DNA from: Planctomycetota bacterium
GTDB taxonomy: Bacteria > Planctomycetota > UBA1135 > UBA2386
Direction of reading: 5' to 3'
Length of the DNA stretch: 64,000 nucleotides
Assembly (NCBI GenBank): GCA_046290465.1
Contig: JBKAGP010000001.1
Location: 3,904,001-3,968,000 of the forward strand
The notes beneath the pieces are model-generated. The model did no database searches and was not told the origin of the DNA. It was given only the letters and a program-made list of their open reading frames with translations. Shown here piece after piece: positions 21,487-56,743 of the stretch (position 1 is its first letter; every line of letters starts with the position of its first letter). The translations under genes were made by a program, and so were the position numbers.

Positions 21487-22934
21487 TGACGATGCGAGCA
21501 CGACTCGACTCCGACCCGTTGCGCGCCGGCCGCCGCCAGTTCTTGTCCGACTGCGGCGTCGGCCTCGGCAAGATCGCGGCGGCGTCCCTGCTGGCCGGCC
21601 CCGCGTTCGGCGCGGGCCGCGGCAGCGACCCGCGGCCGACCGACCCGCGGCCGCCGCACTTCGCCCCGCGCGCCAAGGCCGTCATCCACCTGTTCATGGG
21701 CGGCGCGCCGAGCCAGCTCGACCTGTTCGACCCGAAGCCGCAGCTGACGCGCTTCGAGGGCAAGCCGCTGCCGGCGTCGGTGATCGGCGACCAGCGCTAC
21801 GCGTTCATCCGGCCGGACGCGGCGGTGCTGGGGCCGCGGTTTGCGTTTGCGCGGCACGGCGAGTCGGGCGCGGTGCTCGGCAGCCCGCTGCGTCATCTGG
21901 CGTCGGTCGCCGATGAGCTGTGCATCGTGCGTTCGATGCACACCGACCAGTTCAACCACGCGCCGGCGCAGCTGCTGATGAACTCCGGGTTCTCGCAGCC
22001 CGGCCGGCCGAGCATGGGTTCCTGGGCGATCTACGGGCTCGGCGCAGCCAGCCGCGAACTGCCGGCGTTCGTCGCGATGAGCACGGGCTCCGGCCTGAGC
22101 GCCGGTTCGGCGCTGTGGTCGAGCGGCTTCCTGCCGAAGAGCTTCGACGGCGTGCGGCTGCGCAACGGCAGGGATCCGATCCTCAACCTGAGCACGCCCG
22201 AGCGCTTCGCCGCGCACGGGCTGCAGGAAGAGACGTTTGCGCTGGTCGCCGACCTCGACCGGCGTCGCGCCGAAGCGCTCGCCGATCCGTCGATCACGGC
22301 CCGCATCCAGTCGCTGGAGATGGCCGCACAGCTGCAGACCTCGGCGCCCGAACTGCTCGACCTGCAGAGCGAAGGCGCCGACACGCTGGCGCTCTACGGC
22401 TGCGATCCGGACGAGCCGTCGTTCGCGCGGGCGTGCCTGCTGGCCCGCCGTCTGGTCGAGCGCGGCGTTCGCTTCGTCAACATCTTCCACGAGGGTTGGG
22501 ACGCGCACAGCGACGTCAAGGGCAGCACGCTGCGCAACTGCCGCGCGACCGACCGCGCCTGCGCGGCGCTGGTGCACGACCTGAAGTGCCGCGGCATGCT
22601 CGACGACACGCTGGTCGTCTGGGGCGGCGAGTTCGGTCGCACGCCGATGGTCGAGACCAACCCGGCGCTCGGCCGCAGCCTCGGCCGGGATCACCACCCG
22701 CAGGCGTTTACGATCTGGATGGCGGGCGGCGGCGTGCGCGCCGGCCATACGCACGGCGCGACCGACGAGTTCGGTTTCCACATCGTCGACGGCCCGGTGC
22801 ACGTGCACGACCTGCAGGCGACGATCCTGCACCTGCTGGGCCTCGACCACGAACGGCTGACGTTCCGGCACGCCGGGCGCGACTTCCGCCTGACGGACGT
22901 GCACGGCCGGGTCGTGCGGGAGCTGCTGGCCTGA
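21486..22934 (+). CDS. DUF1501 family protein, Tat-like signal
   Basis: RRQFL, LFMGGAPSQLDLFDPKP, GEFGRTP, GRDHHP; TGATG coupling to the DUF1553 gene. Confidence 0.95.
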   Translation: MTMRARLDSDPLRAGRRQFLSDCGVGLGKIAAASLLAGPAFGAGRGSDPRPTDPRPPHFAPRAKAVIHLFMGGAPSQLDLFDPKPQLTRFEGKPLPASVIGDQRYAFIRPDAAVLGPRFAFARHGESGAVLGSPLRHLASVADELCIVRSMHTDQFNHAPAQLLMNSGFSQPGRPSMGSWAIYGLGAASRELPAFVAMSTGSGLSAGSALWSSGFLPKSFDGVRLRNGRDPILNLSTPERFAAHGLQEETFALVADLDRRRAEALADPSITARIQSLEMAAQLQTSAPELLDLQSEGADTLALYGCDPDEPSFARACLLARRLVERGVRFVNIFHEGWDAHSDVKGSTLRNCRATDRACAALVHDLKCRGMLDDTLVVWGGEFGRTPMVETNPALGRSLGRDHHPQAFTIWMAGGGVRAGHTHGATDEFGFHIVDGPVHVHDLQATILHLLGLDHERLTFRHAGRDFRLTDVHGRVVRELLA

Positions 22935-22995
22935 GCAGGGCCGTCAGCGCAGGACCGGCAGCGCAGGGCCGGCAACGCAGGGCCGGCAGCGCAGG
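22935..22995. repeat. 14-bp tandem repeat (GCAGGGCCGGCAGC, 4 copies plus partial)
   Basis: Read directly; lies between convergent genes. Confidence 0.85.
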
Positions 22996-23000
22996 TGCTG

Positions 23001-23813
23001 CTACCTGCGCCGCAGCAGCAGCCGCGCCTGGTCGACCCGGTAGCCGCGGGCCCGGGCCAGCCGAACCCAGATCTCGGCTTCGGTGTCCGCGCCGGTGCGC
23101 TTCGGCCTGGCCTCTACCGCACGCAGGGCGGCGTGCCGCTCCTCGCTGTCGAGACCGTTGAAGCGGTATGCCGCGTCCTCGGCGGTGAACTGCTCGATCC
23201 CGCGGCGGAATCGGATGGAGTCCACCATCCCGGCGTGGTCGGCGACGCGCACGGGAAACACCAGATCGGCCAGCAGACCGTCGTCGAGCACGACGGTCTC
23301 GTAGGTCACGATGCGCCAGCCGGGCGGCGACGCCGGCCAGGCCTTGCCGACCTCGCCCGGCTTGACCAGCAGGTAGTCGCCGGATTCGAGCATGCGGATC
23401 TGCGCCGAACGAAGCTCGATCAGCTCCGACAGGTTGGCCTCGTCCATCAGCCCGCCGCCTTCGGCGCGCAGCCGGGCCAGGGCCAGCTCCTTCCTGCGCA
23501 CGTTCTCCTGCAGGTCCGTGGCGACGCGCGTGCGGAGGTCCGACGGCAGGTCCCCGAGCGGAGCCAGGGTCACCTTGGCCACGGCCAACGCAGCTGCGCT
23601 GGCGGTGGTCGGCGCTTCGTGCTCCGCGCAGCATTGCGGCTCTCGCTGCGGTGCGGCGAGGTCCGCCGGATCGAGTTGCGACGAGAACTGCTGCGCAGAG
23701 GTCTGCGCCAGTTCGGGCGCCGGCCTGGCGGCAGGGACCGCCGTGGTGCTGCGGCCGAACCACAGCCAGGAACCGACGACGAGCGCGATCGCGACGATCA
23801 ACGTGTAGCGCAT
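23001..23813 (-). CDS. N-terminally anchored hypothetical protein
   Basis: Hydrophobic N-terminus; starts 4 bp after the upstream gene's stop. Confidence 0.7.
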   Translation of the reverse strand: MRYTLIVAIALVVGSWLWFGRSTTAVPAARPAPELAQTSAQQFSSQLDPADLAAPQREPQCCAEHEAPTTASAAALAVAKVTLAPLGDLPSDLRTRVATDLQENVRRKELALARLRAEGGGLMDEANLSELIELRSAQIRMLESGDYLLVKPGEVGKAWPASPPGWRIVTYETVVLDDGLLADLVFPVRVADHAGMVDSIRFRRGIEQFTAEDAAYRFNGLDSEERHAALRAVEARPKRTGADTEAEIWVRLARARGYRVDQARLLLRRR

Positions 23814-23817
23814 GGCC

Positions 23818-24360
23818 CTAGCCTCCGCACTTGGCGCATTGCAGCGGGATCTTGGCGAAGGCGATCTTCTGCCCGCACTTGATCGTGATCTCGACGTCCT
23901 GGCTCTTGTCCTCGTCCGCGCAGGCGACGCTGCCGCTCACGACGTACGATTCCGAGCCGATGTTGTAGGGGATCGTGTCGTTGGTCGGACCCCACACGCC
24001 ATTGTCGTACGTGACCTGAAGGTCGCCGCCGTTGCAGCAGCAGTCGTCCACGTAGACGACATCACAGCTGAACTTGAGGCTGCATTCCGCCTCGAGGTCT
24101 TCGCAGTCGACGCCGTCGACTTCCTTGCAGTAGCCGTCCCCGAGGGTCGGCTGCGCGAGGTTCTGGATCTTGAAGCAGGTCGTCGCGCCGTCACCGCAGA
24201 GCACGACGGCGCTGTTGTTGGCGGGGCCGGCGGTTGCCGAACAGCTGCAGGGAACAGGATCGTCGACCGGCGCAGCGGCACGGATCTCGGTGGGAGGCGT
24301 CCAGGATGCGGTAGCGCCAACTACCAGGGCCAAGGCCGTCGCGAATCGAAGCACCGTCAT
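23818..24360 (-). CDS. Secreted Cys-rich protein (15 Cys)
   Basis: GAGGAG RBS, signal peptide, CSC...CCC...CAKC. Confidence 0.8.
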   Translation of the reverse strand: MTVLRFATALALVVGATASWTPPTEIRAAAPVDDPVPCSCSATAGPANNSAVVLCGDGATTCFKIQNLAQPTLGDGYCKEVDGVDCEDLEAECSLKFSCDVVYVDDCCCNGGDLQVTYDNGVWGPTNDTIPYNIGSESYVVSGSVACADEDKSQDVEITIKCGQKIAFAKIPLQCAKCGG

Positions 24361-24457
24361 GTGAACTCTCCTCTCTTGAAGCAACCCGGGACCCTTCGAC
24401 CCGCGGACGTGAGACTCCCTATCCAGCCCGAGAAGCTATTGGCGCGCTCATACGATA

Positions 24458-25672
24458 TCAACGTTTCCGTCGATTCATCGCGCCACCCGTGCCTGGATCC
24501 GCTATCGCGGCGGCGGCGACCACGAGGCCCGTCTCGAGATCGCGCACGATGGCGACGAACGGACGGTCGGCGTGGAACACCTTCCGGCGGCGAGATGTCG
24601 AAGGCGCCGAGCTGACCATGGTCACCGAGCCGACCCCGACACCTTCTTCGTTCATGCCGAACGCGGCGATCTGCGTGCCGGCGAGGAAGCGGCCGCCGCC
24701 GTTCTGACCGGCGCGCTCCATCAGGTTCCAGCGCGCCTGCGCGTCGACCTTGGGGAGGATCATGGTCACCCGGGACGGCTCGAGCTTCGGCAGCATCGAG
24801 TCGCCCGAGGCGATCGCCTGCGCCAGCAAGCCGCGCAGCGCCTCGAAGTCGAGGTAGCCGTCGGGCAGCAGGAAGTCGACCGCGAACCCCTTCTCGCGCA
24901 ACGGCAATCGCAGCACCCGGAAGTCCGCCGACTCACCGATGAGGCAGTTGCCCTTGCGCTTCATGAACGTCGCAAAGATGCGCTGGTCCTTGGCCGGGCG
25001 GAACGCGCCCAACTGGCTGTTCGACTTCTCGAACGGGTCCTGCCACGCCAGCTTCGCGCCGAACCAGGACACGGCGATCCGGTCCACACCCTCGGGGAGG
25101 TCCGCGACCATGCCGCGATCGCCCCGCCCATCGGAGGCGCGCAGACTCTTCGACAGGTCCTGCCCCTTTGCATGCGTCAGGCCGGGCACACCGGGGACGT
25201 CGCAGGCCATGCTCAGCAGTTCTTTGCGTGTCCGGCCTCGCTGCAGTTGCCACCCGAGATCCGTCACGAGTCGCGTCACCGAACTGTGCAACTCCAGGTC
25301 GGGGGACACGACCAACCGCCCTCCGATGCGAAGCTCCTCGCCGCCACGCTTGCGCAGTTCGCGTATCAATCGCTGCAGCCTCGGAATCGCCGTGGCCACG
25401 GTATGGCCGCCGCCAGTGTACGGAGACAACAACGCGGCCTCGAGTTCGGTCCCGACGACCTGCGACATCGTGATCGCGGCCGTCGAGATTCCGAGCGGAA
25501 CGACGATGACGTTGCCGGACTCGCCGCCATCTCGGAGCTGCGCGACCCGGCGCGCCGCGTCGAGGTGTATGTACGGCACGAGATCCTGCCCGTGCAGCGA
25601 CGCTTTGGCCTGCGGCTGCTGGGGGCCGCCCACGCAGCAGATGGACAGCAGGCAAGGAATGGCTGTCAGCAT
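24458..25672 (-). CDS. Serpin-family protein (divergent, signal peptide)
   Basis: NVIVVPLGISTA, WQDPF, VLRLPL..FLLP, MILPKV, hinge NEEG, C-terminal signature VFHADRPFVAIVRD. Confidence 0.85.
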   Translation of the reverse strand: MLTAIPCLLSICCVGGPQQPQAKASLHGQDLVPYIHLDAARRVAQLRDGGESGNVIVVPLGISTAAITMSQVVGTELEAALLSPYTGGGHTVATAIPRLQRLIRELRKRGGEELRIGGRLVVSPDLELHSSVTRLVTDLGWQLQRGRTRKELLSMACDVPGVPGLTHAKGQDLSKSLRASDGRGDRGMVADLPEGVDRIAVSWFGAKLAWQDPFEKSNSQLGAFRPAKDQRIFATFMKRKGNCLIGESADFRVLRLPLREKGFAVDFLLPDGYLDFEALRGLLAQAIASGDSMLPKLEPSRVTMILPKVDAQARWNLMERAGQNGGGRFLAGTQIAAFGMNEEGVGVGSVTMVSSAPSTSRRRKVFHADRPFVAIVRDLETGLVVAAAAIADPGTGGAMNRRKR

Positions 25673-25677
25673 GGGCG

Positions 25678-28600
25678 TTACTTGAGCTCGAGCAGGTCGG
25701 ACCACTTGATGTCCGTGTTGATGTCAAAAGAGCGCTCGCCCGGTCGAGACTCGAGGGTCGGCGACTTCTTGTCCGCCTTGAGAGACTGGAACGGGAAGCC
25801 CGCCAGCATCGTCATCACGAGGTTGCTCGCCGACTTGGGACCGTTCGGGATGTTGCCCGCAAAGCACGAGAAGATGCTCACGTCGGGATCGAGGCCGTGC
25901 CAGTTCTTGGCGAGCGACGTCCACGCGCGCGCCTCCTTGAGGCCCGCTTCGGCCGCCTCCATGTCGGGGAACGTGCCGTCGCGATTGCCGTGTCCGCAGA
26001 CGTGCATCTTCAGGCCTCCCTGCAGGCCCGGCTTGACGATGCCCTTTCGGTCCTTGATCCACGCACCCTCGTCATCCTTGAACCACGCGCCATATTCACT
26101 CGGCGGCTTGAACCGCGTCGTGACGACCACCTCGCCGTCCTCGTCCCGGCGCGCATGGATGATCACGACGCCGTCGACGTCCTCCGTGCCGTCTATCGAC
26201 TGCTCGAAGGTCATGACCGCGATATTTCCGGCGGCGGCGTTGCCATCGTCTCCGATGATGACCACGACGGTGATCAGTCCGAGCGGGTCCGAGTGGGACA
26301 ATGGTCCGGAACCGACGAAGGCATGGGCGTTGCCCAGGTTGCAGGAATCGGCGAAGGCACCGAGCGGATCGCGGGTCAGGAAGCGTCCGATCGCGGGCGC
26401 ATAGTACCGATTGCGCATGTATGCGAGCCCGGTCGCCGAGTCCCATCGCGTGCCGTTCCACAAGAACGGCTGGCCGATCGACGACTGCGAGGCTGCACCG
26501 GACCCGGCCACGAAGACCGTCGGTGTGCCATACGGATCGTATTCGTAGGTCTCGACGACGGCGCCGGTGTCGTCCACGAGCACCGCCGTCGAATCGCGCA
26601 GCCCCTGCAGCGCATGGTAGTCGTGCCACGCGCCGGCAGCGTCACGCCGGCGGTACGCCACCAGCTCGTTGGAGGTCGCCCCCCATACGAATTGCTTCCG
26701 CGGCACCGCGGTGTTGGGCGCGCCACCGTCGAGGCCGCACTCGGCGATCTCGTTCCAGCCGTCGTAGACGTGGAAGCAGGTCTCGACGCCGACCCAGACC
26801 GATACCGATCGGCGGTCGTAGACGTCGTAGACGAACACGGCCTTCAGCTGCAGCTGACCCGGACTCGGCAGGAAGCCGGGCTTGCCGCCGCCACCGGTCG
26901 CGTTCAGCGTGATCACGCCGCCCGCGATGGATGCCCGTAGCTGGCTGCGGAACGCGGGATCCATGTGCTCCTTGAGCAGACGCCCGTAGAGGTTGGTGAC
27001 CCCCATCCGCACGTCGTCCTGCGCGTCGTCGAAGCCGTCCTGCTGGGCCTCGGCGTACTTCTCCTCGTCGTTCGCCGGCGCGTCCGGAAGGATCTCCCAG
27101 ATCTCCGACAGACGGTTGCGGTAGTCGTACTTGTAGACGAAGACTCCGTCGCAGATCAGGTTGCCGCGGCCGTCGTATTCGTATGGAATCGCCGCGCCGC
27201 CACCACCGACCGCCGGCGTCGAGACCGACGCATAGCGATTGCTCGCGCCCTGCGGGTGGCTCGCACCCTGGGTCGCGTAGTCCTGCTCGAGCAGGCCGCC
27301 GGTCGTCGCATCCTCGCGATCGAGCGAGATGCGGTTGTGCACACCGTCCATCGAGAACTGCTGGAACTGCCCGACCTGACCCGCCACGTAGCCAGCGGGG
27401 GGCGAGCCGGCCATCGTGGCGACGCCGCTCCAGGCCTTCTCGAGTCGGTGGAAGCCGTCGTAGGCGAAGCGGTCGCCGGCCGACCCGTCCACCTTGGTGT
27501 GCACCTCCTTCTCGAGGTTGCCAGCGGCGTCGTAGAGGTAGGCGAAGTCCGAGATGGTCGTCGGCGTGGGGTTGGACGCATCGGAGAACTCGTGCTCGAT
27601 GCCACCCAGGCGACCGAAGCCGTCCCAACTGAACGTCGTGTCGACCTCCGGCAGGTTGGTCCCGCCCGGCGTCAACCGCCGCGTGCGCCGACGCATGCCG
27701 GTCCAGCCATAGTCGGCCAACGGAACGTTCGGGCCGCTGAGGTCGCCGGACGTGTCCCAGTCCAGCTCGTCGAGACGGCCGCGACCGTCGCGCGTCATCG
27801 TCACGCCGAGTGGTTGTGCGAACGCGCTGCCCGCTCCGAGACCGTCGACGAAGTCCCACCCACTGCGGAACGGGTCATTGCCGACATACTCGGAGTGCAC
27901 CTCGAGCACGTTGGCGCTGGCCGCGGCGAAGTTGTAGCGCTCGTCGTGGATGCGACCGATCGAGTCCTCGCGACGATGCACGGTGCCGATCGGCACCTGG
28001 TTGGCCGGGTCCGCGAGGTAGTCGTTGATCTCGACCCGACCCAGCGCATCGCGACGGATCCAGTCGGTCACGTTCCAGCCGGAGATCTTGTTCGGCGCAC
28101 CCTCCAACCAGCGCTTGATGACGCGTCCGGCGCCATCGCGCGCAAAGCGCGTGCGCCCCTGGTCTCCGTCGTAAACGTCCGTCATCCTCGACGCGGCATC
28201 GTATACCGCGAACAGACACATATCTGCATTCGGCGCCGCGGCCGACGGCAACGCCGATGCGCCGGGCCGTTGCAGGATGAACGCTCGGCCTGCAAAATCG
28301 AAGTGTGTAGCGGTCGAATTCCCACTGTCATCGACATCCTGACGGATCGTGCGACCGTCTCCCTGGGTGGCACCCGAGTCGGTGAATATGGTCGACGTAA
28401 CGATGGAAATCGCTGCGCCATCGACCCGCGCGTGTTCGACGACGCGCCCGACGCCGTCACGGAGGTATTTGTGCACCAGGCCCTTGGGGTCGATGTGGCG
28501 ATCCAGGACACCCAGGCTGTCGTAGGCATAGGCGTGCACGAGCGGGCTGGCTTCGGTCGCACCGCGACGGGCCAGCACGACGCGACCGAACGCATCGACG

Positions 28601-31600
28601 TCGAACTCGGTCTCGAAGATCCGCAGTCCACCGAGACCTGCGTCGACCTCCCGGCGCACGACGCTCGCCACGTAGGGCGTGCCCGCGTGGTAGTCGTATT
28701 CGAGCACGTCGCCGGACTGGGACGCGCTCTGCAGCCGCCCGTGCTCGCCACATACAGGTAGGTCGTCTCGTCGAGACCGCTGCGCAACAGCCTGGCGAGC
28801 TGGGTCTGCTTCGCCGGCACGAACTGCCACGCCGTCTGCTGCACGGCCATCGGAGTGGCTCCCCCGAGGTCGCGACGGAAGGCGTCGTCCTGGGTCCAGA
28901 TCACGCGCGACAGCTGGTCGTAACGAACGGCTCGCCGCGCCAACACCTGCGTCGCGTCGCCCGTCTCGGTCTCGGTGACGCGGCCCATGCAATCGACCTC
29001 GAATGCATGCACCGCGCCGCCGGTCGAATGGGTGTAGCCGACGGGGGCGGTCGTCGACGGCTCGGTGACCGAGGTGATCGCGCCGGCAGCGTTGCGTTCG
29101 ACCACCGTCCACAGCTCGTCCGTGCCCGAACCGTCGTGGTTGGCGGCGACCTGCCGCGTGGCGGTGACCTCGAGGAACTCGTTGACGAAGCTCGCCGGAG
29201 ATCGCACCTCGTCGACGTTCTGCGGGTCGCGCGTCACCGTCTCGAACACGGTGCCGTAGCCGTCCTGCACGATCGTCGTCACCCCGCCGCCGGGCCGCGT
29301 CATCGTCGCCAGGCGCCCGTCCGCGCCGTAGGACAGCTTGGTGACCAGGTGTTCGACCCCGCCGCCCGGCTCGTCCAACGGCTTGCGGTCGACGTAGACC
29401 TCCATCAGTTGCGTGTGGTGATAATGGTACTGCGTCTCGATCCAATCGCGGGCGGCCGGACCGCCTGCCCCGTGCCGCGTCGGCTTGCTGCCGTTCGAAG
29501 CCAGGTTGTTCCGCTGCACCACGGTGCGGTGGCCGAAGCGGTCGTAGTAGGCGCGCGCATCGCGCAGGAACCCGCCGCTGGTGCTGGTCACCTTGCGCAC
29601 GGCCGGACCCGACGCGCACAGCTCGTAGACGACGACCGCCGGCTGCCCCGCGAGGGCATGGTGGGTCAGCTGTTCGACGTCCCCGATCGCGCTGAGCGCG
29701 TAGTCGGTCTGGTCGGTCGAACGCTGCAGAACCCGCGTCAGGCGCCCGTTGGCGTCGTACGAGTAGACGGTCCGCAACCCGTCGCCGTCCTCGCTCCGGC
29801 GCACCTGCCCGTTGACGACGCCCTGCTTGGCGAGGCCACCGGGTGCATTCGAGAGGTTGCGCCACCAGGTCTCGGACACCGCCGAGCCCGGCACGCTCGT
29901 GTTGGGCGCGTTGGTGAGCGAGTCCTGGATCCGCACATCGCTGATGGTCTTGACCGTCGTGCCCGGGATCTGGCCGTGCTGGACCGCATCGACCCGATCC
30001 AGCATGTCGGTGTGCGTATAGGTGTAGGTGCCATCGGGCGTCGCTTCGGTGTGCGGCAACCAGGCGCCCATACCTGGCCGGCTCCCGCAGCCTGCGTGTA
30101 GGTACCGTCCACTCGACGGTGACGGATACGGGCCGGCGTCCCCGTGCTCGGGATTGGGGGCGCGGTAGGTCTTCAGCAGCTTGCTGCCCGCATAGTACTC
30201 GTACTCGTGAGAACGGGTGACGGTCGCGCCGTCCCGCGTCGATCGCACGTCCATCCGGATCGGCTGGCGACACGCGCACGTCGCGTCGGCGTAGACGTAG
30301 TACCGTTCGATCTGCTCGGGCTCGACACCGGCGGCCGGGTTGCCCGCTCCGCTCGGATACGCGGTGGCACGCGGACGCCCGTCGGCGTCGTCGCTCGCCG
30401 TCACGAACTCCGAGTAGAGCCGGCCCGACCACTTGTCGTAGTCGAAGCGGTACGTCGAGCCGCCCACCTTCTGGACCTCGATCGACTGCATGGTCGTGCC
30501 GGTCAGCACCTCGGTGGACCGCGTCGCGACCGGATAGCTCGCGACCAGCTTCTCGCCGGTCATCGGCCGCTCCTGGGACCCGAATCGACCATCGGCGAGG
30601 TAGGTCGTCTCGAGGATCTTGCGATCCGGGTGCGACGTCGTGACCAGCGCCTGCGCGAACGGGGCGCCGCTGTGCACCTTGTGCCACTCGCAGAGCGACG
30701 GCGGCACGTTGGCGGCGCCGACGTCGTAGACGAACTCGTGCACGATCTGCGCCGTCACTTCGGCGGCGGCATCGATGACGATCGCATCCTGGCCCGTGCT
30801 GTCGTTCAGCACCTTGCGAGACGAGGAGTAGACGCGATGCAGGCGTCGGCCGAAGTAGCGACCGCCGGTGACGCTGGTCGCACCCTGGAACACGATGCCC
30901 CACGTGCGCGCGACCGCCTCCGGCGGGCTCGCGCCGTTCTGTTGGTAGCGGATCTCCAGGCAGTCCTGCCCGGACCACGCCCACGAGGGGCTCCAGTCGA
31001 ACACCTGGGTCAGCCCCGAGGCGAACTGGACCTCCGCTAGCTGATCCTGCGTGTTCCAGACGAACGACGACGTGTTGTCGTACGGGTCGCGAACGCTCGT
31101 CAGCCGCCACAGCGTGCGCGGCGGACTGGGCTGGTAGGACGACGAGTACGGGTTGAAGGTCTCGTACTGCGCCACGGTGCCGTCGACGTGCCGGACCTCG
31201 GCCCGCCCCGCGGTCGCGTCGTGCCACAGCTGCGCCCCCGACAGGTTGCTCGTGAACCGGTAGACCATCGTCGGCAGCGGCGCCGCGGCATCGGCCGCCG
31301 CACGCTTGCGTCGCTTCGAGCCCTTCGACGAGCCACCCTGCGTCTGCCCGATGCCCGCGTTGCTGAACACCGCGGTCGTCTGCGGGTTGGCGCCGGTCTC
31401 GAGAGGTCCGCCGTATTGGTAGAAGGCCGTGCCGGCCGCGTGCTCGACCTGCATCAGGTAGAGGCCCGGCATGCTGCCGGGTCGTGGCTGCACGGCGGAG
31501 TCCAGGTCGAGCAGCGCCGCCGACATGTCCGGCACCGGCACCGACGGCTTGAGCGGGGTGCCCGAGCCCTGCCACGTCGGGTAGCTGACGTCGAACAGGA

Positions 31601-31976
31601 GCCACCGGCCGTAGAGGCGGGCGACGCCCATCGAGCCGTCGTGCATCTCGGGCATCGGCAGCCGCCGCACCACGGAGCCATAGGTGGAGACGTCGGTGCT
31701 GCCCATGCCGACGTCGCGCAGCACGACCGAGTGGTCGCCGGTCGTGCTGGCGCGCTGCGGGTTGCGAGCGACCAGCGGATCCTGCGCGAAGACGACGCCC
31801 CCGAGCTGCACCAGGTCCGACGGCGCGGCCGGGGTGAACTGCGTGCGGACCTCTTCGCCGCCCAGCATCAACGAGAGCGCGTAGAGGTCGTTGACGGACA
31901 CGGGTTGGCAGCACTCGGTGGTCGGCTGCTGCGCGATCGCGGCGGTGCCGAGCAGGGCGAATGCCAGACTGCGCAT
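25678..31976 (-). CDS. Signal-peptide RHS/YD-repeat protein with C-terminal caspase-fold-like domain; 1-nt frameshift near 28740
   Basis: N-half in frame of ORF 28182..32141, C-half in frame of ORF 25678..32259; YD repeats, core YMRNRYY..GRFLTRDP, PLSHSDPLGL; alternative start 32024. Confidence 0.88.
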
Positions 31977-32337
31977 CGATGCCGACGCACGGCCCCGACG
32001 ATTCCTGGGCGGGTTTCCTCTCATTCCCTTGCTTCGTGGTGCTCTTCCTGCACCACATATCTCCTTCACCATGTGCATACCGATTGCACGGTCGGCAAGC
32101 AAGCCTGAGAACGGCTGGATCGACCCGCGGCGTGCATGCATTTGCAGCCGGGCTGCGCGGCCTTCGGCATCCGTACATACCGATTCCCGGCAGCCTCCGA
32201 AAATCGGGTACCCACGTCAGTCTCGATCGATACACCGAGCCAGGACCCGTCAGGTCCACCGGTCGCCCGCGATCGTCGAAGTCCCATCGCGTGACCTCGA
32301 AGCCGCGCGGGTCCCTGGAGGCTGGCCCCCCCCCAGT

Positions 32338-32389
32338 CCTAAACCGCTGTCCTAACCCGCTGGCCTAACCCGCTGGCCTCGCCCGCTGG
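32338..32389. repeat. Four 13-bp direct repeats (CCTAACCCGCTGG consensus) preceded by a C9 tract
   Basis: Read directly in the RHS/S8 divergent intergenic region. Confidence 0.75.
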
Positions 32390-32469
32390 CCGCCACAGGC
32401 GCGAACTCCCCCCTTCCCCTCTCGCAAGGCGAGCCGTCGCCTTAGTCTCTGTCGACCCGGAAGGAGCCC

Positions 32470-34260
32470 ATGAACGACAACCGTCCCACCCTCTCTCGCC
32501 TCGCGGCCGCCGCGGCCTGCTCGGCGATCCTGTGGTCCACTGCCGCCGTCGGCCAGCAGGCGCAGCGCGCCCGGCGCGCCGTGATGCCCAAGACCCTGGC
32601 CAACGCGCTGCCGGTCGCCGCCGAGCAGACCCGCGTGGTCGTCAAGCTGGCCGAGGGCCGACCCGAGCTGGTCCGCCGCGGCGCGATCGACGCAGCGGAG
32701 ATCCTCGCGGTGATCGATGGCCGGTCGACGCGCTCGTTCTTCGCCGGGCTCGAGGACGAGCTGGCTTCGATCCGCGCGCGCCAGCTCGCGGCGGCGCCGG
32801 AAGGCACCCGGCCGGCGGTCGACCTGTCGCTCTACTACGAGGTGCACGCCAACAGCGCCGCGGACGCGCGACGGCTGGTGCAGCAGCTCAACGCGCTGCC
32901 GAGCGTCGAGCTCGCCTACCCGCGCGAACTGCCGACGCCGCCGCCCGGTGACGACCCGCCGTTCACGCCCGACTTCAGCAACCAGCAGGGCTACCGCGCG
33001 CCGGCGCCCGACGGCATCGACGCCAACGCGGTGCAGGCGTTGACCGGCGCCTCGGGCGCGGGCATCACGGTGCTCGACATCGAGTGGGGCTGGGACTTCG
33101 GCCACGAGGACATCGCGCCGCTGACGGCCGCGTCGCTGATCGGCCCGCCGATCTTCAACTCGACCTACAACAACCACGGCGTCGCCGCATGCGGCGAGAT
33201 CGCGGCCGATGTCGACGGCCACGGCGTTTCGGGCCTCAACCCCGACATCACGCTGCGCGTCGCCACCGACTACCCGGCCAGCGGCTACAGCGTCGCCAAC
33301 GCGATCGCAGCGGGCTTGCCGGCGCTCGGCAGCGGCGACGTGATGCTGCTCGAGGCGCAGACGTCGACGCCGCTCGGCCTCGGCCCGACCGAGTGGAACC
33401 AGGCCGACTTCGACGCGATCCTGATCGCGACCAACCTCGGCATCCTCACCGTCGAGGCCGCCGGCAACGGCGGCGTCAACCTCGACTCGCCGGTGCTCAA
33501 CGGCCTGTTCGATCTCAGCGTGCGCGATTCGGGCGCGATCATCGTCGGCGCCAGCGACGGCGTATCGCTCGCCCGCGCCGGGTTCAGCTCGTACGGCTCG
33601 CGCGTCACCGCCAACGGCTGGGGCCGCGATGTCGCGACGACCGGCTACGGCTCGCTGTTCTCGGCGCCCGGCACGTCGCTGCAGGACTACACCGCGTCGT
33701 TCAACGGCACGTCGTCGGCCTCGCCGATCGTGACGGCCGCGGTCGTCGCCGTGCGCGGCGCCGCCGACGCGCAGCTCGACCCCACCGCGGCCGCGGCGCT
33801 CGATGCGTTCGCGCTGCGCTCCTTGATCGAGGCCACCGGCACGCCGATCCCCAACATCGGCAGCCGCCCCGATGCGGCCGCACTGCTGGCCGCCGCCGAC
33901 ATCCTGCGCGGCCTGACGGTCAGCGCCGACCCGCGGCTCGGCACCAACGTCGTGCTCGAGATCGAGCGCTCGTTTGCCGGCACCACCGGCGACCTCTACG
34001 GCCTGTTCGGCGCGACGTCGACGATGAACGCGCCGCTGCCGGCGCCGTTCGTCGCCGACAGCCGCCGCCTGCTCGACCCGGCCACGACCGCGCCGGCCTC
34101 GTTCGGCACGTTCAACGGCGCGACCGCCGACTACACGATCTCCGTTCCCAACAACGCCGCACTGGTCGGCCAGAGCTTCTACTTCCAGGCGATCACGCTG
34201 GACCAGAACAACGGCTCGCTGGCCGCGACCAACAGCGCCCGGGTCTACGTGCGCAAGTAG
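32470..34260 (+). CDS. S8 subtilase with shared C-terminal domain
   Basis: Triad VLDIE / NHGVAACG / FNGTSSASP, oxyanion AAGNG; AAGGAG RBS; C-terminal VPNNAALVGQSFYFQA..TN. Confidence 0.93.
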   Translation: MNDNRPTLSRLAAAAACSAILWSTAAVGQQAQRARRAVMPKTLANALPVAAEQTRVVVKLAEGRPELVRRGAIDAAEILAVIDGRSTRSFFAGLEDELASIRARQLAAAPEGTRPAVDLSLYYEVHANSAADARRLVQQLNALPSVELAYPRELPTPPPGDDPPFTPDFSNQQGYRAPAPDGIDANAVQALTGASGAGITVLDIEWGWDFGHEDIAPLTAASLIGPPIFNSTYNNHGVAACGEIAADVDGHGVSGLNPDITLRVATDYPASGYSVANAIAAGLPALGSGDVMLLEAQTSTPLGLGPTEWNQADFDAILIATNLGILTVEAAGNGGVNLDSPVLNGLFDLSVRDSGAIIVGASDGVSLARAGFSSYGSRVTANGWGRDVATTGYGSLFSAPGTSLQDYTASFNGTSSASPIVTAAVVAVRGAADAQLDPTAAAALDAFALRSLIEATGTPIPNIGSRPDAAALLAAADILRGLTVSADPRLGTNVVLEIERSFAGTTGDLYGLFGATSTMNAPLPAPFVADSRRLLDPATTAPASFGTFNGATADYTISVPNNAALVGQSFYFQAITLDQNNGSLAATNSARVYVRK

Positions 34261-34423: not shown

Positions 34424-37120
34424 ATGAACGTTCGCACATCCGCTCGACCATCGGGCTCTCGCGCGCCGCACGGCGCCCTGCTGGCCGCGATCGTCGCGTC
34501 GGTGGTCGCCGACCACGCGCAGGCACAGGCGCCGCGGTTCGCATCGCTCGCGCCGGCCGCGACGTTTCCGACCCGGTCGGACGCGAGCTACGGCATGGTC
34601 ACGGGCGACTTCGACGGCGACGGCGACGACGACGTCGTGTTCGCCAACACCGGCCAGAACACGTTCTATCGCAACCGCGGCGACGGCACCTTCGAGGACG
34701 TCACCGCGACCCACATGCCGGTCGACACGGCGAGCAGCCGCCACGTCAGCGCCGGGGACGTCGACGGCGACGGCGACCTCGACCTCGTCATCGGCAACCG
34801 ATACGCCACCAACCGCCTGCTGCTCAACGACGGCTCCGGCGTGTTCTCGGACGGCACGCCGGCAGCGATGGCCGCGCACCAGGAACCGACGAGCACGGCG
34901 ATCCTCGGCGACCTCGACGGCGACGGCGACCTCGACATCGCGATCGGCAACCGCGGGACGTCGAGCTACTACTCGGCTCCCTACGACGGCCAGAACCGGG
35001 TCTTCCGCAACGACGGCACCGGCCAGTTCACGGAGGCGACGGCGAGCGTCCTGCCGAGCGCCCAGACGATCACCGAGTCGCTGATCGCGTGCGACGTCGA
35101 CGGCGACGGCGACCTCGACCTGATCGAACTCGGCGGCGAGGACGAGGTGTTCGGCCCGTACGGATCGTGGACGGTTTCGAGCGACACCAAGGTGCTGCGC
35201 AACGACGGCACCGGCGTGTTCGTCAGCGCGGTGGGCGCGATCCCAACGACGCCGGCCGGCACCGCGCATCCGTTCGACCAGGACCTCGACGGCGACCTCG
35301 ACCTGATAGTCATCGACTGCAGCGACCAGCCGCGCTTCTACCGCAACAACGGTGCGGGCGCGTTCGTCGACGTGACCGTGGGCACGATGCCGTACGCCGG
35401 CGGCGTCGCCTGTGCGACCTGCGTCGTGACGCCCGACCTCGACGGCGACGGCGATCCCGACGTGCTGATCGGCAACCGCTTCGGCGTCGAGATGGCGCTG
35501 GTCAACCAGGGCGACGGCACCTTCTGGTGGTGGTCCGGCGAGATCACCGGCAGCCTGTCCACCGCCGCGCGCCGGATGGCCGCAGTGGACGTCGACGGCG
35601 ACGGCGACCGGGACCTCGTGATGGCGAGTTCGGACGGGCCCAACCTGCTGCTGCATTGGAACGGCATCGATCGCTTCGTCGACCCCGACGCCGTCGGGGG
35701 TGCCCAGTGGTTTGCCCGAGCGCAGTCCTACCCCGAGGGCGGTGCGATGGTCGACCTCGACGGGGACGGCCGTCGCGACCTCGTGCAGATCGATGTGGCG
35801 CAGGGCGTGTCGGTGCTCGCCCACACCGGCAACGGCTTCGAGCGGCGGACCGGTTGGGAGCCGCAGATCACGCAGGTGTCGTATCCGGCGCGCATGGCCG
35901 CGGGCGACCTCGACGGCGACGGCGACCCCGACGTGCTCGCGGCGACGTTTGGCGCGCTGGTGGTCTGCCGCAACGACGGCACCGGCCGCCTGGTCGCGTC
36001 GTCCAGCGCCTACGCGGGCTTCAGCCAGGTGCAGAGCATCGCCATCGGTGACGTCGACGGCGACGGCAATGCCGACGTCGTGGTCGGCGTTGCCGCCGGC
36101 GCGGCGGTCTCGGTGCTGCGCGGTGACGGCGCGGGCGGGCTCGCGGCGGGGGTCGGCATCCCGAACTCGTCGTACGGCGGCAGGGACCTGGCCCTGTTCG
36201 ACCTCGACGGCGACGGAGACCTCGACATCGTCTCGTGCCAGTCGCTCGGCGCCTTCCTCTACGAGAACGACGGCAGCGGCAACTTCACAGTGCTCGCCTC
36301 GCCAACGCTGACCCAGGTCCTGTCGTCGCCACAGTCCGTCGACGTCGCGGACGTCGACGGCGACGGGGACCTCGATCTGGTGTTCGTCGACGGCAGCTCG
36401 TGGTCGACGCAGACCCAGCGGCTGTTCCTCAACACCGGCACCGGCGTGTTCGGCAGCGCCCCGAACGGCAACCTGCCCCCGCACGGCCTCCCGGCAGGCC
36501 GCCACCTCAACCACATCCGGTTCGTCGACTTCGACGGCGACGGCGACGCGGACGTCGCGTCGCTCTACGCGGTGAGCTCGTCCGGCCTGCAGCTCGGCGG
36601 CGCGCGCCTGTTCGAGAACCAGGGCAACGGCAGCTTCCAGGACGTCTCGACCGACGTCGCCGAGTGGAGCACGACGCCGAGGGAGCTGTTCGTCGACGAC
36701 GTCGACCTCGACGGCGACCCCGACCTGCTGGCGCTCGGGAACCCGGGCCCCTCGGTCTACTTCAACCTGCGTCGCCACGTGCACATCGCGGCCCGGCTGC
36801 AGCCCGGCGGCACGCTCGAGCTCGAGGCCTATGCGCGCGGCGTGCAGGTCGCACCGACCGCGATCGTCATCCCGTGGGTTTCGCAGGTCGCCGTGTCGGT
36901 CCCGCTGCCGCCGTTCGGCCACCTCGGCATCGACCCGCTCGCCGCGATCAGCCTGCCGCCGATCGCGATCGACCCGGCCACCGGCGACGGCACGGCGTCG
37001 CTGCCGTTGCCCAACCTGCCGGGGCTGGTCGGCCAGCCGCTGCTGGTGCAGGGGCTGCTGCTCAACCCGCCCGGGGAGCTGGAGCTGACCAACACGTCGA
37101 CGCGGGTGTTCGTGCCGTAG
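34424..37120 (+). CDS. FG-GAP/VCBS repeat secreted protein with shared C-terminal domain
   Basis: More than a dozen D(V/L/F)DGDGDxD repeats; C-terminal LPNLPGLVGQPLLVQG..TN. Confidence 0.93.
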   Translation: MNVRTSARPSGSRAPHGALLAAIVASVVADHAQAQAPRFASLAPAATFPTRSDASYGMVTGDFDGDGDDDVVFANTGQNTFYRNRGDGTFEDVTATHMPVDTASSRHVSAGDVDGDGDLDLVIGNRYATNRLLLNDGSGVFSDGTPAAMAAHQEPTSTAILGDLDGDGDLDIAIGNRGTSSYYSAPYDGQNRVFRNDGTGQFTEATASVLPSAQTITESLIACDVDGDGDLDLIELGGEDEVFGPYGSWTVSSDTKVLRNDGTGVFVSAVGAIPTTPAGTAHPFDQDLDGDLDLIVIDCSDQPRFYRNNGAGAFVDVTVGTMPYAGGVACATCVVTPDLDGDGDPDVLIGNRFGVEMALVNQGDGTFWWWSGEITGSLSTAARRMAAVDVDGDGDRDLVMASSDGPNLLLHWNGIDRFVDPDAVGGAQWFARAQSYPEGGAMVDLDGDGRRDLVQIDVAQGVSVLAHTGNGFERRTGWEPQITQVSYPARMAAGDLDGDGDPDVLAATFGALVVCRNDGTGRLVASSSAYAGFSQVQSIAIGDVDGDGNADVVVGVAAGAAVSVLRGDGAGGLAAGVGIPNSSYGGRDLALFDLDGDGDLDIVSCQSLGAFLYENDGSGNFTVLASPTLTQVLSSPQSVDVADVDGDGDLDLVFVDGSSWSTQTQRLFLNTGTGVFGSAPNGNLPPHGLPAGRHLNHIRFVDFDGDGDADVASLYAVSSSGLQLGGARLFENQGNGSFQDVSTDVAEWSTTPRELFVDDVDLDGDPDLLALGNPGPSVYFNLRRHVHIAARLQPGGTLELEAYARGVQVAPTAIVIPWVSQVAVSVPLPPFGHLGIDPLAAISLPPIAIDPATGDGTASLPLPNLPGLVGQPLLVQGLLLNPPGELELTNTSTRVFVP

Positions 37121-56083: not shown

Positions 56084-56324
56084 GGGCTGGCGGGGTGTTG
56101 CGGGTGTCGACGGTTCGGGGTGCGGATCGGAGCACCTGCGGATCGTGGCGCCTGACCATCCGCGCGACGGGCGCACCCGTCAAGGCGCCGTCGAGACCGG
56201 CCGATCCGGCGGATCGTTCGAGATGGCGACCGGGATACGGGCCGACGGTGGCAACGCCGACGAGGTCATCGACGAACGAGAAGCGCGCCTCCTGCGTCGC
56301 GCCCGCATCCGCCTGACGCGCGCC

Positions 56325-56743
56325 CCTAGCGGGCAAAGCCCCGTCCGCACGCGTACTCGCCACTTCCGCGATCACGGTTGGCAGCGCGTCCACTACATGG
56401 ACGCGCTCCTAGCGGGCAAAGCCCCGTCCGCACGCGTACTCGCCGCTTCCGCGATCACGGTTGGCAGCGCGTCCACTACATGGACGCGCCGAGCGGGCAA
56501 AGCCCCGTCCGCACGCGTACTCGCCGCTTCCGCGATCACGGTTGGCAGCGCGTCCACTACATGGACGCGCTCCTAGCGGGCAAAGCCCCGTCCGCACGCG
56601 TACTCGCCGCTTCCGCGATCACGGTTGGCAGCGCGTCCACTACATGGACGCGCTCCTAGCGGGCAAAGCCCCGTCCGCACGCGTACTCGCCGCTTCCGCG
56701 ATCACGGTTGGCAGCGCGTCCACTACATGGACGCGCTCCTAGC
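56325..56743 (+). repeat. Five tandem copies of the 81-83 bp CTAG-bounded element (REP/MITE-like)
   Basis: Units start at 56325, 56408, 56489, 56572, 56655; each has hairpin AGCGCGTCCA-N5-TGGACGCGCT. Confidence 0.95.

Follow-up and report, generated by a model that had tools for sequence, protein, structure and literature searches.

Does a serpin that is encoded directly behind an RHS toxin protect the producing cell from that toxin and, if so, how? This question is raised by a locus in a 64,000-nucleotide stretch of DNA from a Planctomycetota bacterium (assembly GCA_046290465.1, contig JBKAGP010000001.1, positions 3,904,001 to 3,968,000 of the forward strand), termed here the window, with positions counted from its first letter. 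At this locus, an RHS/YD-repeat polymorphic toxin gene ends in a C-terminal tip predicted to be a caspase-like cysteine protease, and the gene that follows encodes a serpin. CrmA is a serpin that inhibits caspases cross-class, and an earlier note on this DNA had proposed that the pair is a protease toxin neutralised by a cognate serpin acting in a similar manner. The analysis described here leads to a modified proposal, which is given slightly less than an even chance: the remodelled serpin would be the immunity protein of the caspase-fold tip and would neutralise it, probably through stable binding in place of the classic serpin trap. The features on which the argument turns are as follows.

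25678..31976 (-), RHS/YD-repeat polymorphic toxin gene of about 2,100 amino acids, its start placed by inference at MRSLAF (31976)
31932..31976 (-), signal-peptide-like N-terminus of the RHS protein, predicted from hydropathy only to direct Sec export
26275..26541 (-), RHS-associated core TIGR03696, ending in the PxxxxDPxGL autocleavage motif (profile match and motif)
25678..26274 (-), C-terminal tip of 198 amino acids, directly after PLSHSDPLGL, predicted to be a clan CD (C80-like) cysteine protease
25990..25992 (-), codon of His95, predicted to be catalytic, with His in 21/22 aligned tips
25864..25866 (-), codon of Cys137, predicted to be catalytic, with Cys in 22/22 aligned tips
24458..25672 (-), remodelled serpin of 404 amino acids with a signal-peptide-like N-terminus, in the immunity-gene position, ATG at 25672
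24593..24649 (-), serpin hinge and reactive loop from P17 to about P2', EEGVGVGSVTMVSSAPSTS, with a non-consensus hinge

Pfam and NCBIfam profiles identify YD/RHS repeats (PF05593, TIGR01643) and the core TIGR03696 (E 3e-15) in the toxin. The sequence PLSHSDPLGL (26304-26275), which has the form of the PxxxxDPxGL autocleavage motif defined in PMC8636562, separates this core from the variable tip, and in relatives the same core end is followed by many different tips. The RHS reading frame is broken in the window at two places, near 28,740 and within about 30,060-30,120; because the short-read contigs of 4/4 sequencing runs compared show single-base indels relative to the window at both sites, these breaks are most likely long-read errors and the gene is most likely intact. 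Moreover, the order of RHS gene, tip, and serpin is no assembly artefact, since a single contig of run X4 covers 22961-32600 and a single contig of run X2 covers 24384-31319, at about 98% identity to the window. Run X1, which is perhaps the source sample, was left out as independent evidence. No promoter- or terminator-like sites were found in 22800-26400, and no RNA data are listed among the sequencing runs that contain the locus. Delivery by a type VI secretion system was considered and rejected: the RHS N-terminus is signal-like and Pfam and NCBIfam profiles detect no PAAR domain. A single VipB gene is present in the genome, 1.8 Mb from the locus.

The catalytic layout described by the earlier note is present in the tip. 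The domain of 198 amino acids behind DPLGL (26274-25678 on the reverse strand) contains the motif LKMHVCGHG, which carries His95, and the motif PDVSIFSCFAG, which carries Cys137; the two residues are 42 positions apart (codons 25992-25990 and 25866-25864), and in the tip model the predicted strands E89-94 and E131-136 end at His95 and Cys137, respectively. A search of 1.84 billion proteins returned five matches, three of them true homologs, all RHS tips, in which C-G-H-G and S-C are invariant (3/3); the remaining two were borderline, unrelated and set aside. Word-index protein searches returned zero relatives of the tip, and pattern scans of the genome and of metagenome contigs for a window-type tip returned nothing. 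The three closest tips (P0003-P0005) lie on contigs of at most 2.4 kb. In an alignment of 22 family tips, made up of 18 of the 19 members of the profile-defined family described below, one tip added by eye, and three metagenome homologs, His and Cys are the sole near-invariant residues of catalytic type, and their spacing ranges from 41 to 69 across the family. Among 10,000 shuffles of the tip, 64 contain the His..Cys strand motif, as do 0/51 unrelated tips; this is a rough test only, because the motif was drawn up after the family was known. Among strains, the tip is under purifying selection, with 15 synonymous and 6 non-synonymous differences (ratio of non-synonymous to synonymous polymorphism, pN/pS, 0.12) and an unchanged His/Cys dyad. 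One family tip, L051:3688-4545 (G038:C284), has Asp in place of the predicted catalytic His and retains the Cys and a DUF3160 neighbour; it may be inactive or may use another base.

Structural comparison points, though weakly, to the caspase/haemoglobinase alpha-beta-alpha fold. The AlphaFold model of the tip has a predicted local distance difference test score (pLDDT) of 61, falling below 50 at residues 171-183, and C80 domains are the top matches to it in all three structure searches. The MARTX CPD occupies ranks 1-3 in Foldseek (E 8.5e-4 to 1.6e-3), a MARTX CPD comes first in a wide VIA search (Z 6.5, root-mean-square deviation 4.3, 149 residues aligned), and C80 CPDs hold ranks 1-5 in VIA-align (best Z 7.1, deviation 4.4, 146 aligned). 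In clan CD, His and then Cys stand at the ends of core strands (PMC4357240), and His95 and Cys137 are each found at the C-terminal end of a predicted strand. Some of this evidence pulls the other way. The fold match is middling, with Z below 8 on a model of pLDDT 61 and with vWA and flavodoxin folds within 1 Z, so the clan CD call rests on rank and dyad. At the sequence level, the window tip matches no Pfam or NCBIfam family and does not reach the PF11713 cut-off of 23.8 bits. The best PF11713 score among the 16 relatives' tips scanned is weak (13.1 bits, E 0.12), a tip profile compared by sequence with solved structures gave a single match (E 0.41), and a C80 profile search in five genomes did not recover the tips. 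Judged by such scores, the tip is C80-like and no member of C80. The C80-like fold foreseen by the earlier note is thus upheld by a weak, top-ranked match and a conserved dyad, and the tip is very probably a clan CD protease.

The gene whose ATG lies 5 bases past the RHS stop is indeed a serpin. It matches PF00079 with an E value of 1.3e-16 (61.2 bits, cut-off 27) and aligns with seven solved serpins at E<=0.001; its P1 residue is about Ser358 by the standard serpin P-numbering. This is the sole serpin of its genome, and a word-index search with it returned only one serpin, 98% identical. Within the order, serpin matches are found in 95/339 genomes, most of which have stand-alone serpins. As with the tip, differences among strains indicate purifying selection on the window serpin (15 synonymous and 9 non-synonymous among the 24 differences listed, pN/pS 0.21). 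That both partners are exported, as had been suggested, agrees with signal-like N-termini predicted from hydropathy only and fits the serpin less well, which has no basic n-region. A structure model of the serpin reached pLDDT 33 from a 4-row alignment, and predictions of the tip-serpin complex scored 0.00 in two runs with no folded controls and so count neither way.

Both the position of the serpin and the recurrence of the pairing speak for a cognate serpin. Tip-only profile searches of 339 genomes of the order and 401 of the phylum, which scored 8-9 candidates per genome, gave one borderline match each beyond the window genome; the family was found when the RHS core end was added to the search, which collected 70 distinct tips. 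A hidden Markov model (HMM) of the window tip and three homologs gathered 20 of these 70, and removal of one false member left 19. The tip removed (L068) is metalloprotease-like, had been drawn in by leftover core sequence, and was moved to the unrelated group. L073, in which His and Cys are visible by eye and which the HMM missed, was kept in the unrelated group, and L173, a likely family member with an undetectable core end, was not counted. Downstream genes were counted where at least 900 nt lie behind the tip, and 12 unrelated tips with less were dropped. A serpin directly follows 4/19 family tips and 0/39 unrelated tips (Fisher p 0.009); serpin homologs behind unrelated tips, which the earlier note had named as a finding that would speak against it, were therefore not encountered. 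Besides the window, the pairs come from genus g25, which belongs to a different family of the same order: in G047:C501 the tip-serpin unit occurs twice in tandem, and in G054:C20 a tip-serpin pair is followed by a further tip with DUF3160. From the side of the serpin, 48 stand-alone serpin loci with 1.5 kb flanks contain zero RHS cores or tips, and among 133 further serpin loci an RHS core or tip appears solely in records of the same G047 and G054 loci. Finally, the gene after the tip has a signal-like N-terminus for 15/19 family tips versus 14/39 other tips, which points to an action of family tips outside the cytoplasm.

Several observations weigh against a dedicated pairing. The four tip-serpin pairs derive from only two independent lineages, so the Fisher p value overstates the association. 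The window tip is connected with the G047 tips only transitively, through the iterated HMM (E 2e-8 and 3e-3); a direct profile comparison of them finds nothing (probability 0.4%), and the window tip and the G054 tip share only a weak in-register Cys match (E 0.0033). Serpin-linked tips do not form one clade (three changes, in a weakly supported tree), and tip and serpin identities do not co-vary, the tips of the G047 pair being 52% and the serpins 32% identical. Nor is the serpin an obligatory partner: at 15/19 family tips its place is taken by DUF3160 (5) or by other, mostly secreted proteins. A shared P1 residue is not evident among the four cognate serpins. The placement of the serpin in the immunity slot is thus supported by its recurrence in a distant genus and its absence behind unrelated tips and does not extend to most of the family. 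Position and recurrence together suggest that the serpin is probably the cognate immunity protein of the tip.

Would such a serpin act as a trap? The window hinge, EEGVGVGSV, departs from the ExGTEAAAA consensus of inhibitory serpins at P17-P9 (PMC8233489). Glu at P13 is found in 1/10 RHS-linked or orphan serpins, compared with 44 of the 46 stand-alone serpins that could be parsed. Two further motifs, those of the helix-F loop and the shutter (SPxS), occur in 0/10 RHS-linked or orphan serpins, compared with 44/48 and 47/48 stand-alone serpins, respectively. Segment lengths, measurable in 24/48 stand-alone serpins, also differ: across helix F, the three cognate serpins of G047 and G054 fall short by 25-30 residues (120-126 versus a median of 152), and before the hinge, the window serpin has about 16 residues fewer (134 versus 147-183). 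Three cognate and two orphan serpins bear a C-terminal extension. In the serpin tree, the end branches of remodelled serpins reach 5.4 versus a median of 0.55, and nine remodelled rows fall on one side with support 90, where long branches meet; the tree neither establishes nor rules out that the remodelled serpins arose once. With the consensus hinge and the helix-F-loop and shutter motifs missing from these serpins, the classic CrmA-like suicide trap that the earlier note envisaged appears doubtful.

The serpin could nonetheless be cognate and still work as a classical suicide trap, the tip cutting the reactive loop and insertion of the loop into sheet A inactivating the protease. Position and recurrence speak for this explanation as they do for stable binding, cross-class inhibition of cysteine proteases by serpins is documented (PMC8233489), and the window serpin keeps the loop length, P15 Gly, P8 Thr, and the C-terminal HADRPF motif. 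A hand count, which weighs against a wholly abandoned trap, finds charged residues at 0/40 inward hinge positions (P14, P12, P10, and P8) versus 9/30 outward ones, and because the inward positions stay uncharged, the RHS-linked or orphan serpins may still be capable of loop insertion. However, the loss of the consensus hinge and, in 10/10, of the two motifs, together with the shortened helix-F and pre-hinge regions, makes the classical trap unlikely; given a cognate serpin, non-classical binding is the likelier mode. A different explanation denies any connection with the tip and makes the serpin a guard of the periplasm against other proteases, its position being accidental. The earlier note had pointed to a nearby S8 protease as such a target, which belongs to a divergent pair of genes upstream of the RHS gene.

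32470-34260 (+), secreted S8 protease, divergent from the RHS gene
34424-37120 (+), FG-GAP repeat protein, divergent from the RHS gene

The RHS start and the S8 gene upstream of it are about 500 bp apart, the genome has no further serpin, and the serpins found in 95/339 genomes of the order commonly stand alone. However, save for a partial copy in the window genome, no S8 homolog was found in the loci examined; the S8 explanation is weak because the tip-serpin loci of the G047 and G054 relatives contain no S8 gene. Serpins also stand behind tips of the caspase-like family only, and the inhibitory motifs kept by stand-alone serpins are lost in RHS-linked ones; an unrelated serpin is thus very unlikely. 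It is distinctly unlikely, too, that the RHS protein is not antibacterial, its tip instead processing surface proteins or striking eukaryotes such as algae or coral, with the serpin as chaperone, co-secreted partner, or substrate. Among solved folds, the nearest belong to autoprocessing domains in host-directed toxins, and the runs bearing the locus are labelled as algae, coral, aquaculture, and marine metagenomes (X1-X4, X6, and X10 aligned). Yet the tip domain forms the C-terminal end of the protein, so that no part is left for it to release, and the same slot on the RHS core in relatives holds tips that by eye are nuclease-like, HExxH-metalloprotease-like, or of other kinds. Furthermore, close coupling to a variable downstream gene is typical of antibacterial toxins (PMC3482391), and a pocket for host activation by inositol hexakisphosphate (InsP6) is not evident because no invariant Lys/Arg follows the Cys in the four closest tips, although the model is too weak there for a view on the pocket and the beta-flap. 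That the tip is some other His/Cys enzyme, or a vWA- or flavodoxin-like alpha/beta domain without catalytic function, and no protease, is highly improbable: the nearness of these folds to C80 in Z and the marginal C80 signal in sequence would agree with it, whereas the order of His and Cys at strand ends is that of clan CD (PMC4357240), both residues are near-invariant over 22 tips, and C80 came first in three structure searches.

The favoured reading, a remodelled serpin that blocks the tip by stable binding, would involve four steps. Judging from hydropathy, the RHS protein would be exported by Sec. The tip would then be cut at DPLGL by the RHS aspartyl autoprotease; the motif is present, and cleavage there would follow the activity described in PMC8636562. 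Once free, the protease with its His95/Cys137 dyad would cleave proteins of a competitor's envelope or periplasm, as the secreted products of partner genes suggest. In the producing cell and its kin, the tip would be bound and blocked by the exported serpin, in keeping with the serpin's position and recurrence. The reactive loop could serve as a pseudo-substrate, presented on a scaffold that, with its motifs lost, would have no need of the stressed-to-relaxed switch.

Serpins may share this role with other proteins. DUF3160 (PF11369), which one paper describes as an uncharacterised secreted protein, is encoded directly after 5/19 family tips (four by HMM and one more by Pfam) and 0/39 unrelated tips, making it a second candidate immunity family for caspase-like tips. 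The DUF3160 genes are as follows.

L044:3259-5532, DUF3160 gene (PF11369)
L075:824-3184, DUF3160 gene (PF11369)
L051:1670-3607, DUF3160 gene (PF11369)
L167:984-2645, DUF3160 gene (PF11369)
L171:550-2586, DUF3160 gene (PF11369)
L116:2554-4629, DUF3160 gene (PF11369)

The last of these lies in a toxin-free array (G047:C822) with the order FG-GAP, DUF3160, FG-GAP, serpin, serpin; a second toxin-free array, at a contig end (G038:C66, L117), has the order FG-GAP, serpin, serpin. The orphan serpins are 51-54% identical to one cognate serpin. By analogy, such arrays look like the polyimmunity loci described in PMC3482391, and the FG-GAP proteins could themselves confer immunity of another type. The wider scenario, that planctomycete serpins were recruited against caspase-fold RHS toxins, shed the trap in favour of stable binding, and were stockpiled as orphans in polyimmunity arrays, with DUF3160 as a second immunity family, is put at rather less than an even chance.

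Elsewhere around the locus, neighbouring genes encode the planctomycete-type domains DUF1549, DUF1553, and DUF1501. Behind the serpin stand two secreted-looking orphans, one of 180 amino acids, rich in Cys and Asp (23818-24360, reverse strand), and one of 270 amino acids (23001-23813, reverse strand); neither has a Pfam family or a paralog in the genome, and both could be further immunity genes. Approximately 6 kb past the window end is a rearranged partial copy of the locus (L001:10306-15632, equivalent to G000:C1:3974306-3979632), 93-99.7% identical, in which the Cys-bearing half of the tip, without His95, is joined to the N-terminal 3.8 kb of the RHS gene and accompanied by a fragment of the S8 gene. 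The copy adjoins a Prim-Pol primase and a tyrosine integrase, and doubled depth in run X1, not seen in X2-X4, suggests a real, strain-specific duplication. Five tandem 83-bp units of 97% identity (56319-56743), with many dispersed and tandem copies genome-wide, look like a repetitive extragenic palindromic (REP)-type repeat family. A different type of RHS tip, with H-x-W-V-E-L and late N-C motifs, occurs twice in tandem in L047 (G032:C53), each copy being followed by a paralogous secreted protein; by eye, the two could be toxins of papain-like or NlpC/P60-like kind.

For most bacterial serpins, the physiological target is not known, and gene order at this locus would name one, a co-encoded protease toxin. 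If the proposal is right, the serpin fold and DUF3160 would join the immunity families of polymorphic toxins, and bacterial serpins would serve in inter-microbe warfare. It would also provide a natural series of serpins apparently without the conformational trap, with a bearing on how the serpin mechanism evolved. The analysis further defines a family of about 20 predicted clan CD RHS tips, likely acting outside the cytoplasm. An RHS toxin with an immunity gene and a caspase-like tip is already known; what appears new is the serpin-derived immunity candidate, recurring, with its canonical trap motifs shed and orphan copies kept. The literature search found no pairing of a serpin with an RHS toxin as immunity protein, in agreement with the earlier note, to which none was known; most subscription journals were outside this search.

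Among known systems, prokaryotic inhibitory serpins and CrmA resemble the RHS-linked serpins in the PF00079 fold, the breach Trp, a loop of normal length, and a signal-like N-terminus. The ExGTEAAAA hinge of the prokaryotic inhibitory serpins (PMC8233489), however, is absent from the RHS-linked ones. The closest precedent for the toxin is the Tox-Caspase group of polymorphic toxins (Zhang et al. 2012, PMC3482391), found in bacteroidetes, gammaproteobacteria, and actinobacteria, which likewise has a caspase-like peptidase as its C-terminal-most domain, a downstream immunity gene, and the type II secretion system (Sec) among its export routes. There, the immunity families named are Imm36 and Imm57 in place of a serpin; the word "serpin" occurs 0 times in the main text of that paper, although its supplementary file might contain an unlabelled serpin listing. 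The CPDs of MARTX, TcdA, and TcdB (C80, PF11713) are the best structural match over the whole tip and share His and then Cys at strand ends, with a spacing of 49 in the MARTX CPD versus 41-69 in the tip family. Unlike the tip, which is a terminal payload scoring below the family cut-off, C80 domains are internal, InsP6-activated, and autoprocessing, with Leu at P1 (PMC4357240). Cpe1 with Cpi1 (PMC12136450) and StbD-CT with StbI (bioRxiv 10.64898/2026.05.07.723447) are likewise interbacterial cysteine-protease toxins with an adjacent immunity protein. These toxins are papain-like or of family C39, cut cytoplasmic type II topoisomerases, and are paired with non-serpin immunity proteins, whereas the system described here would combine a clan CD fold with a serpin-derived partner and a predicted site of action outside the cytoplasm.

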